Source: a virus (lineage: Duplodnaviria > Heunggongvirae > Uroviricota > Caudoviricetes). From it: 5,065 bases of DNA. The notes under the pieces were generated by a model. That model made no database searches. It saw only the letters and a program-made list of their open reading frames with translations, and was not told where the DNA came from. Positions 1-5,065 of this stretch are shown in pieces. The position numbers and the translations under genes are program-made. Within the stretch, counting starts at the first letter, position 1. Each line of letters starts with the position of its first letter. The stretch is taken from the IMG/VR virus record IMGVR_UViG_2693429605_000002; one strand, written 5' to 3'.

Positions 1-2390
1 CCACCATAAACATCACCTTGATTGGTAAGCAGCAGGTAAGTTTTAGCGCCATCATTACGCCATAATGCCCCATACTCCCCACCTATCATTCGAATCTGAT
101 TACCACCACGCGCTACAATTTCGTCTGTGGCAAAAAGTTTTTTGCACGACAAGTTATCGTTAACGATTAACGAATGAGACTCATAAAAACCACGCCCACT
201 CTTAAAATCAAGGATAACGTCCGCCGCGATACATTCAGTCGCCGGATTTGTTGCCCCAAACTTATAGGTCGTATCATTAACAACGAGATCAGCACCAGGT
301 GCGGATATTGACAGGCCATCTTCGATAAACGCAAAAACAGGGAAAGCAGCGCCATCAACATAGAACACAGAGCGCAAATCATCGCCCTTATTACTCATCA
401 TTATTGAGTGGATGGCTCGTTCATTGTTTTGATATTGCCAGAACATTCCATAAGCATAACGCCCCCTGTCAGTCCAGCCACCAGGCATAACAAATCCGTT
501 AAACTCGCAGTTATTCATCGGATCGCCTGCGGTTCGCGTTGCCGTGGTGATAATGACCCTTGATGCCAGTTCGCTTACTGAGCCAGCAGAACGCATAACA
601 ACAACAGGGTAATATTTTCCAGATGTTGCACCTGCAGGAGCGTTAACCCGCACATAACGCATACCACGCTTATCAGCAAAGTCTGTTTTACTGACCGCGT
701 TAATGTTGTTCAGGAAGCGTCCCTTATCGGGTATATCAGCGCCGTTCTGGTCTTTCTGCAGACGTTTCTCTGCATTGTTATAGGCTGATTTTACTGCCTT
801 TGGCGTTGCCGCCAGCGTTTCAGACGTGCTGTTGGTCGCGCTGCTTAGCTGGATTATCCCTTTCTGTGCTGTCGTTGCATCCTGTGCGGTGTATTTCCCG
901 TTAGCCAGGTCATACGCGGCCTTAACGGCTTTTGGCGTTGCCGCCAGTGACTCGGAAGTGCTGTTGGTCGCACTGCTGAGCTGTACTATCCCCTTTTTCG
1001 TCGTGCTCGCATCCTCAAGCGCCACGGCGGATGCAATATCCTCTGCCCGTTTTGCCGCTGTCTCAGCGCGCGTTGCCGCGGATTCCGCCGTACTTTTGCT
1101 CTGAGCTGCTGCCGTCGCACTGCCAGCTGCCTCTGTCGCCTTCGTGGATGCCGTCGTGGCGCTACCCTTCGCTGCTGACGCCTGTCTGGTCGCTTCATCT
1201 TTTGAAGCAGACGCAGATGATGCCGATGACGACGCCGAACTGGCTGACGATGCGGCAGCCGTTTTTGAGGATTCTGCGCTGGTTTCCGACGCTTTCGCGT
1301 TCGTTTCGGATGTCTTCGCTGCGGAAGCAGACCTCGCTGCTGCGCTGGCCTGTTCAGTGGCTTCGCCAGCCTTCGTTGTGGCTGTTGAAGCAGACGATGC
1401 GGCGCTTTCTGCCGATTTTCCGGCGGCGCTAGCACTGGCTGAGGCCTGCCCGGCACTTGTTGACGCTGCACTGGCAGACGACGCAGCCGCTGTTTTTGAG
1501 CCTGCCGCAGCCGAGGCGCTCTGTCCCGCTGCCGTTTCAGAAGACCTGGCGTTCGTCTCTGACGTTTTTGCCGCCTTCGCGGAATTTCCTGCCGCTGTTG
1601 CCGAGGAAGCTGCGCTACTGGCGCTCGAGGATGCGTTCGTTTCTGATGATTTTGCCGCCTCTTTTGAAGCCGCCGCATCCCGGGCTGAGGTGGCAGCTTC
1701 TGACGCTTTCGTAGTCGCGGTGGATGCAGAAGTGGCTGCTGATTGTTGTGACGCTGCAGCATTAGTTTCTGACGTTTTTGCGGCACTGGCACTGGTAGCT
1801 GCCGCGCTTTTTGAGGACTCTGCAGCGGCAGCACTTTTTGATGCTTCAGTGGCCTTTGTTGATGCCGTTCCTGCGCTGGAAGTCGCTGACTGAGCCGACG
1901 ACGCGGCCTGTCCGGCTGACGTGCTGGCTGCGCGTGCTGAGCCTGCAGCATCAGTCGCATGGGTTGCCGCCTCACGGGCTGATGTGCTGGCATCACTGGC
2001 TGACTTCTTCGCGGCTGCCGTGTTCTGTGCCACCACGGACGCGTTACGCGCCACCTCTTCCACCATCAGCTCAAAACGGCGCAGTGCCTCCGGACGGGCA
2101 TCATCCTCCGTCATGGCACCGAGAAAATCATTCAGCGTACCGGGTCGGGAATCTTCATACACTGTGATGGTCCCGGCATGTGACGGCGGGAATCCTTCCA
2201 CCAACAGAATAACGCTGTACTGACCGTACTCAACGTCCATACTGTAACGCCCGGCTTCATCCGGATTTTCAGATGCCAGCGTGTTCACCACCACCGTGGT
2301 ACTGTTACGTTTTGCTTTCAGCTGGATTGTGCAGTTCTGTACCGGTTTTCCTGTGCCGTCTTTCAGTACACCTGAAATCTTTACTGCCAT
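1..2390 (-). CDS. stf: Side tail fibre protein Stf, N-terminal 796 codons; 3' end and stop lie beyond the window start
   Basis: Not in the ORF track. Hand translation from ATG (complement of 2388..2390) down to position 3 gives 796 codons with no stop: MAVKISGVLKDGTGKPVQNCTIQLKAKRNSTTVVVNTLASENPDEAGRYSMDVEYGQYSVILLVEGFPPSHAGTITVYEDSRPGTLNDFLGAMTEDDARPEALRRFELMVEEVARNASVVAQ..., then an Ala/Ser/Thr-rich region, two GI(V/I)QLSSATNSTSE(S/T)LAATPKAVK fibre-repeat motifs, and a distal region ending ...GGEYGALWRNDGAKTYLLLTNQGDVYGG at the window edge. The first ~110 residues match lambda Stf as I remember it almost residue for residue. A GGGGTGA Shine-Dalgarno sits 2 nt upstream of the ATG. Confidence 0.88.
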   Translation of the reverse strand, partial: MAVKISGVLKDGTGKPVQNCTIQLKAKRNSTTVVVNTLASENPDEAGRYSMDVEYGQYSVILLVEGFPPSHAGTITVYEDSRPGTLNDFLGAMTEDDARPEALRRFELMVEEVARNASVVAQNTAAAKKSASDASTSAREAATHATDAAGSARAASTSAGQAASSAQSATSSAGTASTKATEASKSAAAAESSKSAAATSASAAKTSETNAAASQQSAATSASTATTKASEAATSARDAAASKEAAKSSETNASSSASSAASSATAAGNSAKAAKTSETNARSSETAAGQSASAAAGSKTAAASSASAASTSAGQASASASAAGKSAESAASSASTATTKAGEATEQASAAARSASAAKTSETNAKASETSAESSKTAAASSASSASSSASSASASKDEATRQASAAKGSATTASTKATEAAGSATAAAQSKSTAESAATRAETAAKRAEDIASAVALEDASTTKKGIVQLSSATNSTSESLAATPKAVKAAYDLANGKYTAQDATTAQKGIIQLSSATNSTSETLAATPKAVKSAYNNAEKRLQKDQNGADIPDKGRFLNNINAVSKTDFADKRGMRYVRVNAPAGATSGKYYPVVVMRSAGSVSELASRVIITTATRTAGDPMNNCEFNGFVMPGGWTDRGRYAYGMFWQYQNNERAIHSIMMSNKGDDLRSVFYVDGAAFPVFAFIEDGLSISAPGADLVVNDTTYKFGATNPATECIAADVILDFKSGRGFYESHSLIVNDNLSCKKLFATDEIVARGGNQIRMIGGEYGALWRNDGAKTYLLLTNQGDVYG
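780..998 (-). repeat. Two copies of the conserved phage tail-fibre repeat motif within stf, 135 bp apart
   Basis: Copy A (998..912) encodes KKGIVQLSSATNSTSESLAATPKAVKAAY; copy B (863..780) encodes KGIIQLSSATNSTSETLAATPKAVKSAY. The DNA copies differ mainly at synonymous third positions. I recall this motif as a widely shared tail-fibre repeat found in lambda Stf and related fibres. Confidence 0.7.
1020..2030 (-). repeat. Ala/Ser/Thr-rich low-complexity, internally repetitive coding region of stf (fibre shaft)
   Basis: About 340 codons dominated by GCN/TCN/ACN codons. The motif (A/K)K(T/S)SETNA recurs four times (coding on minus strand near 1779, 1653, 1569 and 1319), with related SAA/ASS/TKA(T/S)EA blocks between. 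The composition is so biased that other frames and the antisense strand also stay open here (track ORFs 1144..1893 + and 986..1996 -). Confidence 0.65.
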
Positions 2391-2401: not shown

Positions 2402-2428
2402 AAAAAAGCCCGCCTGAACCCGCGGGCT
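2402..2428 (-). terminator. Putative intrinsic (Rho-independent) terminator downstream of lom, immediately upstream of stf
   Basis: Plus strand 2407..2413 agcccgc pairs with 2422..2428 gcgggct (7-bp stem, 8-nt loop ctgaaccc). On the minus strand the hairpin is followed by a T-run (complement of the A-run at 2402..2407) that leads straight into the stf Shine-Dalgarno. It lies 27 nt downstream of the lom stop. Confidence 0.6.
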
Positions 2429-2454: not shown

Positions 2455-3054
2455 TCAGAACTTATAACCAACAGCCACGATGAACCCGTCAGTGCGCCAG
2501 TCACCACTGCCGGAGCCTTCATAAGCGACATCAATGGCCACGGATTCGGTCGGGTTAAACTGCACGCCAGCTCCCCACGCCAGAGACGTGTTGCTGTGGC
2601 GACCGTCATCACTTCCGGTCAGCACATCGTGCTTTTTCCCCTTGTTGTCAGTTACGCGGAGATAATCCCCGGAGAAAGTCGACACACGGCTGTAAGCCAT
2701 ACCCGCCATCGCATACGCGCTGAACCATTCATTCACGCGCACAGACGGCCCCGCCATCACGCTGAACCAGCGATTACGCACGGAATCCTCATGCCAGCGG
2801 GTATCGCTGTAATGCGTTTTTTGCTCATCTTCAGCGTTGGCATAACTGAATGACGTAATCAGCCCCAGCGTGTCCGTAAACTCATAACGGTATTTCACGT
2901 TAATCCCGTTCAGTTCATCGCTGCCAGGAACGTTCGTCGAGACATGAAGATACCCCGCGCTCAGCGTTGACTGATGTTCAGACGCCCATGCAGGCGCACC
3001 GGATACGGCCAGACAAATGGCTGCGGACAAAATGGCGGCATAAAGTTTACGCAT
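2455..3054 (-). CDS. lom: Lom outer-membrane protein, Ail/Lom/PagC/OmpX-family small beta-barrel (199 aa), lysogenic-conversion moron
   Basis: Complete ORF in the track. ATG is the complement of 3052..3054 and is preceded by a GAGAGG Shine-Dalgarno; stop TGA is the complement of 2455..2457. N-terminus MRKLYAAILSAAICLAVSGAPAWA has the n/h/c layout of a Sec signal peptide with an AxA cleavage site. The C-terminus ...YEGSGSGDWRTDGFIVAVGYKF ends in Phe, the typical outer-membrane beta-barrel signal, and closely matches the lambda Lom C-terminus as I remember it. Alternating aromatic/hydrophobic residues fit an 8-strand barrel. Position between J and stf is as in lambda. Confidence 0.92.
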   Translation of the reverse strand: MRKLYAAILSAAICLAVSGAPAWASEHQSTLSAGYLHVSTNVPGSDELNGINVKYRYEFTDTLGLITSFSYANAEDEQKTHYSDTRWHEDSVRNRWFSVMAGPSVRVNEWFSAYAMAGMAYSRVSTFSGDYLRVTDNKGKKHDVLTGSDDGRHSNTSLAWGAGVQFNPTESVAIDVAYEGSGSGDWRTDGFIVAVGYKF

Positions 3055-3121: not shown

Positions 3122-5065
3122 TCAGCTGATACTGATGCCTGCGGTGGCTTTCTTCATCACCACAACCAGCAAATCGCTGATACTTGCTGTGGGATACCAG
3201 TTATTCACCAGCCATGCTGATACCGAAAACTCCAGCGTCATGTGACCGTGACCGGCAGGCATATCAATAACGCCACTGTAAATCAGCGTATTATCCAGCG
3301 CGGTACGGTTATAAATTTCAGCACCGTTTTTCCGCACTATCAGACGGCATGAGGAGTAAATATCAGTATGCTCTCTCTCATGCTTAGCGCCACTGAATGC
3401 CACCGCCGGAATAACAATCTGCCGGTCAAACGGCTGATCGTCATAAACCCTGACGGTAATGGTCCCTGATGGCCACCGCTCCGGTGCACGGGAGTCACGG
3501 GGGAAAGCTTTGCCCACTGTTTTAACGAGATCGCCTTCAATCTGGTTCGCGGACAGTTTTCCCAGAACCCGGCAGTTCTCGTTAATCGTGACGTTGTTGA
3601 GCGTCCCGGAGTTCGCATTCACGTTACCGCTAATATCGGCATTTTTCGCCGTCAGCCGCCCGTCCGGTGTCAGGGAAAATGCCGGAGGATTACCGCCGCT
3701 GGTAATGGTGGGAGCCGTCAGATATTTCAGGAACACGTCGTTCATGAATATCTGATCGCCCTGACCAACAAACATCGGCTTTGTGTTGCCATTCGCAGGA
3801 TTAATCATCGCAATCCTGTCCGCCGCCAGCAGCACCTGACTCTGCATACCGTCAGGGGTATTCTCAATACCGGCACCAATACCCGCGATATAAAGGCGTC
3901 CGTCCTGCATCTGCTGCAGCTTCACAGCCCACATGCTGTTCAGGTTATTATTTGTATCAACCTGAACCTTCTGTATCTGCTGGATCGCTGCACTCTGGTC
4001 TTCCAGTTTCTTATTGACGGTCTGCGTGATTTCATTACTGACATCCGTGATGGACGTTCTGATTTCCGCCAGGTCAGGCGCAAGCTGACCGTTATCAATC
4101 TGAGTCCACAACTCCTGAGCCAGATGGGTTTTCCCTATCTCTCCTTTGAAAAAATCCAGATAGCCGGATGCATCATCACTCGGCTGGCCAACAGCCTCCA
4201 CAAATGCCGATTTGCCAACGGTGTTCACACTGCGGATATAAAAGTAATAATCATGGCCCGGTTTGATATTGATACTGGCGGCTATCCAGTACAGCCCCGT
4301 GCCAAGGTAGCGGGCTGTGGTTTCAACCTGCCTGATATCGGTAATCCGCGTTTCCGAAAACCAGAACTCAAACTGTACCGTCGGGTCATACACCGCAAGA
4401 CGCGGGACCGCTGTTATCTGAAAATAGCCCGGTGTCAGCTCAATCTGTGACGGCGCTGCCGGTGCGGCAATCAGGAACGATACCGACGCCGGATCGCCCT
4501 GCTGTCCCCGGGCATTTACCGCCCGGACTGTCAGCGTGTAACGCCCCAGCGCCAGTTGTGTGAAGCGGTATGTGGTTTCTGCCGTCCGGGCTGTGCTGAC
4601 CAGCCGCTCACTGCCGTCATCCGCTGCCACGGTCAGGCGAAGCATGAAACTCACGCCCTTCACCACCTTCGGCGTGTCCCATCGCGCCAGCACCTGATAT
4701 TCCCCGCTGTCTGCGGTGACTTCGGCAGTCAGGTGCTGCACTGCTGGCGGCGTGACACCATTCACCGTGCCGCTCTGGTCGCCGTCAAAGTGCGCCCCGT
4801 TATCCACGATGGCTTCTTTTTCCGGTACATGCTGCACGGCGGTGATGGCATACGTGCCGTCGTCGTTCTCACGGATACTCACGCAGCGGAACAGGCGCTG
4901 GCGCAGCGTCGGCAGCTTCAGCCCCCACACGCTGTATCCGGCAACGCCGTCAGGAACACGGCTCACTTTTACCTTCACGCCGTCGGTGACGGACTGGACC
5001 TCCACGCTGACCGGATTGCCACTTCCGTCAACCAGGCTTATCAGCGTGGTACCGGAGGATGGCAG
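3122..5065 (-). CDS. J: Host-specificity / tail-tip attachment protein J, C-terminal part (647 codons plus stop); 5' end lies beyond the window end
   Basis: ORF track gives 3122..5005 (627 aa) beginning at an internal GTG. Hand translation of 5065..5006 in the same frame reads [20 protein letters not shown] with no stop, so the gene continues upstream out of the window. Stop codon TGA is the complement of 3122..3124. Identification rests on position (directly upstream of lom and stf, 67-bp gap to lom), large size, and beta-rich composition with segments resembling fibronectin-III-like repeats (e.g. [32 protein letters not shown]); no database search was possible. Confidence 0.88.

Follow-up and report, generated by a model that had tools for sequence, protein, structure and literature searches.

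An alanine- and serine-rich kilobase of a lambda-type stf gene: a probable coiled-coil shaft of the side tail fibre and the shadow reading frames within it

A stretch of 5,065 nucleotides from IMG/VR virus record IMGVR_UViG_2693429605_000002 (hereafter the window) contains about one kilobase, at 1020-2030, which is open in several frames at once and which encodes an extremely biased part of the side tail fibre gene stf. Which of these frames is a gene, what would its product do in the fibre, and does the block change its length by recombination between repeats? A sequence-only reading of the window had described the block as a repetitive shaft of stf, had regarded two further long open reading frames (ORFs) as compositional shadows, and had suggested that unequal recombination could vary the length of the shaft. 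We found that the Ala/Ser-rich kilobase very probably forms the proximal three-stranded coiled-coil rod of a lambda-type side tail fibre, with the extra ORFs as untranslated by-products of its composition. The heptad order, frame statistics, substitution pattern and length classes presented below all come from the present analysis.

Window positions 1020-2030 correspond to Stf residues 121-457, which contain 37.7% Ala, 24.9% Ser and 12.2% Thr, and the composition, the frame and the Pfam context confirmed that the block is the Ala/Ser-rich shaft of stf. When the protein was written in rows of seven, the heptads stayed in phase from the end of the PfN domain with no register break over 343 residues. 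Position a was Ala in 47 of the 49 heptads, position d was Ser in 37/49 and position e was Ala in 35/49, and just 4 of the 343 shaft residues were V, L, I, M or F. The Ala indicator gave a Fourier power of 10.6 at period 3.5 and of 4.0 at period 7, whereas 2000 shuffles did not exceed 1.8 and 1.9, respectively. A run that the sequence-only reading had quoted from the shaft is present from residue 301, although its first letter is T and not S. The motif KTSETNA does recur as described, in three copies (residues 205, 275 and 359) and three variants (KSSETNA at 247, RSSETAA at 282 and KASETSA at 366), but its spacing, which that reading had called irregular, is regular: the steps from one SET motif to the next are 42, 28, 7, 77 and 7 residues, each a multiple of 7, so that the six motifs share one heptad register. 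At the DNA level, Tandem Repeats Finder returned 0 rows for the window, the longest exact direct repeat in the block was 14 nt, and the reported repeat families were short and 62-89% identical. The shaft repeat exists at the protein level only. A 17-nt inverted repeat (1008-1024 and 1619-1635, 94% complementary, arms 594 nt apart) was also observed, with one arm at the end of the shaft and the other in its middle; the biased codon set probably accounts for it.

The gene that carries the block was identified from its domains and its surroundings. All genes of the window lie on the minus strand, namely the C-terminal 647 codons of J (3125-5065), lom (2455-3054) and stf, the frame of which is open from 2429 to 3, with an ATG at 2390, and runs past the left window edge. 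Pfam recognised in the stf product phage_tail_N at residues 1-134 (E=9.7e-72, full profile covered), two Phage_fiber_2 repeats at residues 462-502 and about 506-546, and a Gp34_trimer domain at residues 707-796. Moreover, residues 1-94 matched the Ur-lambda Stf chain of PDB 9e7m (E=1.1e-51). The gene was 99.8% identical to a 1176-aa coding sequence (CDS) of E. coli CFSAN064035, which lies beside ydfJ in a Qin-like prophage and has tfaQ behind it, and in a genome search stfR of E. coli K-12 was 96.5% identical to the window gene. It is thus placed downstream of J and lom, with the tail-fibre assembly gene tfaQ after it in the 99.8%-identical genome. Because in-frame Pfam domains flank the block, with J and lom upstream of the gene and tfaQ after it in the near-identical genome, the gene is the stf of a lambda-type side tail fibre, as the sequence-only reading had called it.

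A strict heptad array directly after the collar domain is the signature of a coiled-coil rod. Three hallmarks of the lambda Stf / PfN-PCoil fibre family were found here: a PF08400 collar, Ala/Ser heptads immediately after it, and a position after J and lom and before the assembly gene. As for a canonical coiled coil, the heptad periodicity runs without stutters and a helix is predicted. In a single-sequence AlphaFold2 (AF2) model of residues 95-470, 362 of the 376 residues were predicted to be helical (98-385 and 396-469) with a mean predicted local distance difference test score (pLDDT) of 74; the model is a monomer built without an alignment and is silent on the oligomeric state. The trimeric coiled-coil state and the spacer role are suggested by published work on homologues. 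Ur-lambda Stf has been resolved over residues 1-94, which form a collar at the tail tip (Yu et al. 2025, Sci Adv, PMC12617516; PDB 9e7m/9mgh), and residues 102-393 of Ur-lambda gpStf were described, by cryo-electron microscopy, cryo-electron tomography and AlphaFold3, as a proximal trimeric coiled coil with a hinge to the distal fibre (PMC12617516). The Ala/Ser region of an O157 prophage fibre was named "PCoil" (Ghosh et al. 2012, PLoS One, PMC3368898), and PfN-PCoil of EPclA was trimeric and alpha-helical by size-exclusion chromatography with multi-angle laser light scattering (SEC-MALLS) and circular dichroism (PMC3368898).

The same composition could also be expected of an intrinsically disordered low-complexity linker, and the extreme Ala/Ser/Thr bias, the near absence of V, L, I, M and F noted above and the fact that no Pfam model covers the block would all suit a segment that does not fold into a rod. 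We consider this hardly credible, since the heptads are strictly phased over 343 residues and predicted to be helical, the homologues are helical and trimeric (circular dichroism, SEC-MALLS) and appear as rods by electron microscopy and cryo-electron tomography, and length differences in whole heptads, described below, indicate that the register is kept.

The 249-aa ORF on the antisense strand and the 336-aa ORF in the +1 sense frame exist exactly as the sequence-only reading had stated, and its remark that neither has a convincing Shine-Dalgarno sequence also held: both start at GTG, and nothing AGGAGG-like was found upstream of either. In addition, the antisense ORF contains zero in-frame ATG codons, a promoter scan of 800-2500 returned no sites, Pfam found no domain in the antisense ORF, and the +1-frame ORF had no PHROG or Pfam match. 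A stop in the +1 sense frame requires T at position 2 of an stf codon, and T stands there in 1% of the shaft codons; therefore, the +1 frame cannot gain stops. For a stop in the antisense frame, stf must have a Tyr codon, or else a His or Gln codon that comes after a codon with T in third place. Since the shaft has no Tyr and little Gln and His (11 together), the antisense frame, which shares its third codon positions with stf, is nearly stop-free, with only about 2 stops. Indeed, when synonymous codons were permuted with the Stf protein kept (1000 trials), the +1 frame was fully open in 1000/1000 and the longest antisense open run averaged 270 aa, against 262 aa observed. After mononucleotide shuffling, each frame had about 8-10 stops.

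Substitutions were then compared among 70 unique ungapped homologous shafts. These contained 390 distinct substitutions, counted without regard to phylogeny, and 260 of the 390 fell at third positions of stf codons. Normalised nonsynonymous/synonymous ratios were 0.21 for stf, 2.14 for the +1 sense frame and 0.25 for the antisense frame, the last being low only because this frame shares its third codon positions with stf. The crude per-frame ratio was rejected as a discriminator between stf and the antisense frame (0.21 vs 0.25), and a partitioned test was used instead. The third-position periodicity that the sequence-only reading had proposed as a check on stf-only coding fails in the same way, since coinciding third positions do not allow it to separate the two frames. 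In the partitioned test, stf-synonymous transversions that change the antisense product were not significantly depleted relative to silent ones (0.164 vs 0.215, p=0.19; odds ratio 1.4, in the direction of weak constraint, with modest power), whereas antisense-synonymous transversions that change Stf were depleted 4.7-fold (p=5e-7). Among the homologues, substitutions are constrained in the stf frame alone. The antisense frame of other shaft classes is interrupted by a median of 1-3 stops, the places of which vary, and its longest open run is 44-177 aa. On the codon permutation, the partitioned substitutions and the stops in other classes, both long extra ORFs are compositional shadows and very probably not translated genes.

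The warning that automated callers can pick the wrong frame in this region was borne out by existing annotations. The lambda GenBank entry J02459 places orf206b on the opposite strand inside orf-401, orf206b is still listed as lambdap90, and the antisense ORF of the window is 86% identical to orf206b over 80 aa. Antisense 'hypothetical proteins' are annotated in place of the shaft in phages ev099 and phi458, 21 database proteins match the antisense product, and a match to phrog_560 (profile length 249, 'unknown function') covers the antisense ORF over its entire length (E=7.7e-122). The members of this family appear to be shadow ORFs antisense to stf, lambda orf206b among them, and the family is probably spurious. 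A literature search on orf206b gave just a gene table listing it as non-essential by CRISPR interference (CRISPRi), and no ribosome-profiling paper in the library searched mentioned it.

The length of the antisense ORF, its full-length PHROG match, its annotation in lambda and other phage records with those 21 database proteins, the low crude ratio, and the odds ratio of 1.4, within the limited power of that test, can also be taken as signs of a real overlapping gene, expressed opposite stf and making an Ala/Asp/Val/Phe-rich product that is tolerated through the third codon positions shared with stf. We regard such a gene as highly improbable. Its openness was fully reproduced by a codon permutation that keeps just the Stf protein, antisense-only changes were not significantly depleted, the ORF has a GTG start with no Shine-Dalgarno sequence, no in-frame ATG, no promoter-like site in 800-2500 and no Pfam domain, and the frame is interrupted at differing places in the other shaft classes. 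The CRISPRi knock-down of lambda orf206b had no phenotype, but laboratory lambda can do without stf itself, so that this result says nothing either way. Compositional shadowing by the shaft explains the annotated antisense proteins, and its practical meaning is that such shafts reliably yield long false ORFs on both strands. The shaft biology itself, a trimeric coiled coil with heptad-wise length, has already been published for homologues, of which the window shaft is a long member, and this annotation caveat is the main residual value of the locus: lambdap90 persists as a RefSeq lambda protein, and phrog_560 should probably be flagged as spurious.

To compare shaft lengths, 280 loci with the N-domain were collected from viral and genome contigs, and the heptad array was segmented in 234 unique proteins. 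Loci were retrieved because a search of protein databases with the N-domain gave almost nothing but partial fragments of 113-235 aa, unusable for shaft length. These partial matches suggest that contigs from short reads end where the shaft begins, a region that is multi-copy in E. coli, with a median of 2 and a maximum of 15 places in a genome. In all, 5,426 complete E. coli genomes contain 15,519 stf places. Heptad arrays end near residues 229-243, 340-345, 351-352 and 446-453 and so fall into discrete length classes. We then measured distances between two fixed anchors, the RRFE/RRLE motif and whichever motif comes first beyond the shaft. At the Phage_fiber_2 junction the distance was 363 aa in 80 loci, 360 aa in one, 367 aa in one and 258 aa in lambda; at the PLPDVW junction, the class being named after the first motif following its shaft, it was 257 aa in 64 loci, 250 aa in one and 152 aa in one. 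Apart from two singletons (-3 and +4), the differences at the same junction were 105, 105 and 7 residues, all whole heptads. The large step was exactly 105 residues (15 heptads) in both junction classes (363 vs 258 and 257 vs 152). The comparison of homologues for in-frame length differences, which the sequence-only reading had recommended, therefore gave steps of 7 and 105 residues, both heptad multiples. Previous work also reported that PCoil lengths differ by multiples of seven residues (PMC3368898). As for the two singletons, locus L021 carries a duplication of SAST (+4 aa) and locus L041 a deletion of 3 aa in a SSASSASSSASS run; these indels would put a stutter or stammer into the coiled coil, or may be assembly errors.

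Within the class of the window the shaft was stable. The anchor-to-anchor length was the same in 80 of the 82 loci, 79 shafts aligned without gaps at 89-99.8% nucleotide identity, and the shaft length was constant while the whole protein ranged from 475 to 1176 aa. The origin of the 15 extra heptads was also considered, and a recent internal duplication was unsupported (local score 234, against 217 +/- 12 with a maximum of 260 for heptad-shuffled controls). Length classes in whole heptads, the two rare small indels and twelve-mer repeat pairs that are all in frame (3/4 offset by multiples of 21 nt) would be expected of a hypervariable contingency region, in which frequent unequal recombination or slippage between repeats tunes the fibre length within populations. 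Such a region is nevertheless very unlikely here, because the DNA lacks tandem repeats, exact repeats do not exceed 14 nt, nearly all loci of the class are equal in length with gap-free shafts, and the extra 15 heptads are no closer to the rest of the shaft than heptad-shuffled controls. Efficient RecA-dependent exchange usually needs roughly 20-30 bp, and 14 nt is below that. Of the recombination proposal, therefore, the part that stood is that length varies in whole repeat units, with lambda 105 aa shorter and one PLPDVW relative differing by 7 aa, and the part that did not is an ongoing hotspot of unequal recombination.

Length variation among close relatives sits in the Phage_fiber_2 units and not in the Ala/Ser block. 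At these units a DNA repeat, D1, has a spacing of 132 nt and 76% identity, and relatives with the same 49-heptad shaft have 0-4 Phage_fiber_2 copies at an exact spacing of 44 aa. The window has two units and K-12 StfR one, which accounts for the 132-bp difference seen in the genome search.

Several points weigh against the rod with its untranslated shadows. The confidence of the AF2 model was moderate, with a low-confidence break at residues 384-397. The Ala/Ser core is atypical for coiled coils, and the large hydrophobics (Leu/Ile/Val) of a canonical coiled coil do not occupy positions a and d. The oligomeric state attributed to the shaft of the window would be that of its homologues. The two relatives with -3 and +4 residues make whole-heptad change a rule but not an absolute one, and the antisense odds ratio leans toward weak constraint in a test of modest power with counts that ignore phylogeny. 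We consider the shaft an atypical small-core coiled coil, a character already noted for PCoil (PMC3368898).

Further, we propose that the rod would stand between the N-terminal collar domain, which docks on the tail tip, and the Phage_fiber_2 units with the distal receptor-binding modules, and that it may serve both as a trimerisation module and as a spacer that determines how far the fibre reaches. A parallel three-helix rod, as suggested by the homologues, would be about 50 nm long if each residue adds about 0.148 nm. Its length would shift by whole heptads over evolutionary time, giving discrete classes, and would be stable among close relatives, so that the rod may act as a conserved N-terminal handle carrying many different distal modules. 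For phage engineering, the 49-heptad register shows which changes are tolerated, namely discrete classes with steps of 7 and 105 residues at the same junctions.

The coordinates of all features are collected in Table 1. The terminator-like hairpin between lom and stf stands at a place where homologous phage records (mEp460, Ayreon) annotate a 'terminator', and an Rfam scan of the window gave no match.

Table 1. Features of stf and its surroundings in the window (residues are those of Stf).
Feature	Residues	Window position	Strand	Remark
stf (side tail fibre) CDS		3..2390	-	796 codons seen, 3' end outside window
N-terminal collar domain (PfN / PF08400)	1-134	1989..2390	-	Pfam
Heptad array, PCoil / proximal coiled-coil shaft (probable)	113-455	1026..2054	-	49 uninterrupted A-x-x-S-A-x-x
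KTSETNA heptad	205-211	1758..1778	-	
KSSETNA heptad	247-253	1632..1652	-	
KTSETNA then RSSETAA, adjacent heptads	275-288	1527..1568	-	
KTSETNA then KASETSA, adjacent heptads	359-372	1275..1316	-	
15-heptad block absent from lambda Stf	304-408	1167..1481	-	one clean 105-aa gap, identical flanks (global alignment)
Two tandem 44-aa Phage_fiber_2 units	462-502 and 506-546	753..1007	-	outside the block described in the sequence-only reading
Antisense ORF, 249 aa, lambda orf206b / phrog_560 equivalent		1144..1893	+	judged non-coding
+1-frame ORF, 336 aa		986..1996	-	judged non-coding
Terminator-like hairpin between lom and stf		2407..2428	-	GC-rich, then TTTTTGT; 16 nt upstream of stf ATG

During locus retrieval we also met lambda-type stf genes, about 91% identical to that of the window and equal to lambda orf-401 where complete, on contigs of assemblies of unrelated organisms, including Leeuwenhoekiella, Pseudomonas, Desulfosporosinus, Shewanella, Oceanobacillus, Kitasatospora, Bradyrhizobium and others. 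Most of these contigs had coverage near 1 (L086-L103, L107, L109-L110, L112, L116-L117, L119-L120), and their presence looks like contamination with lambda control DNA.

Compared with known fibres, the window gene shares with Ur-lambda gpStf the same N-terminal collar domain and the same position after J and lom. Lambda Stf aligns gap-free over residues 1-303, and the junction into the first Phage_fiber_2 unit is common to both, but the window shaft exceeds that of lambda by exactly 15 heptads (105 aa, about 15.5 nm), is followed by two Phage_fiber_2 units where lambda has one, and leads to a distal part of StfR/StfQ type with a Gp34_trimer domain. Lambda orf206b occupies the same antisense frame within the stf shaft, and the match of its family phrog_560 covers the window ORF at full length; orf206b has 206 aa against 249 aa in the window because the lambda shaft is shorter. 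The PCoil of EPclA and EPclB follows the same PfN domain and is likewise an Ala/Ser-rich low-complexity heptad region, but it has about 18 heptads with more Glu, has been described as only loosely periodic and is followed by collagen repeats, whereas the window shaft has 49 strictly periodic heptads followed by Phage_fiber_2 units. Among the relatives collected here, L104 and L201-L280 have such a short (about 18-heptad) shaft leading directly into collagen-like GPPGPKGEQGPAGPQGPKG repeats and represent the EPclA/B prophage collagens; collagen Gly-X-Y is an obligately trimeric fold, and this fusion likewise suggests a trimeric shaft. Another close known fibre is StfR of the E. coli K-12 Rac prophage (1120 aa), the shaft of which is identical at 333 of 343 residues and equal in length, and the distal region of which is the same as far as the window reaches, the difference being that StfR has one 44-aa Phage_fiber_2 unit and the window two.

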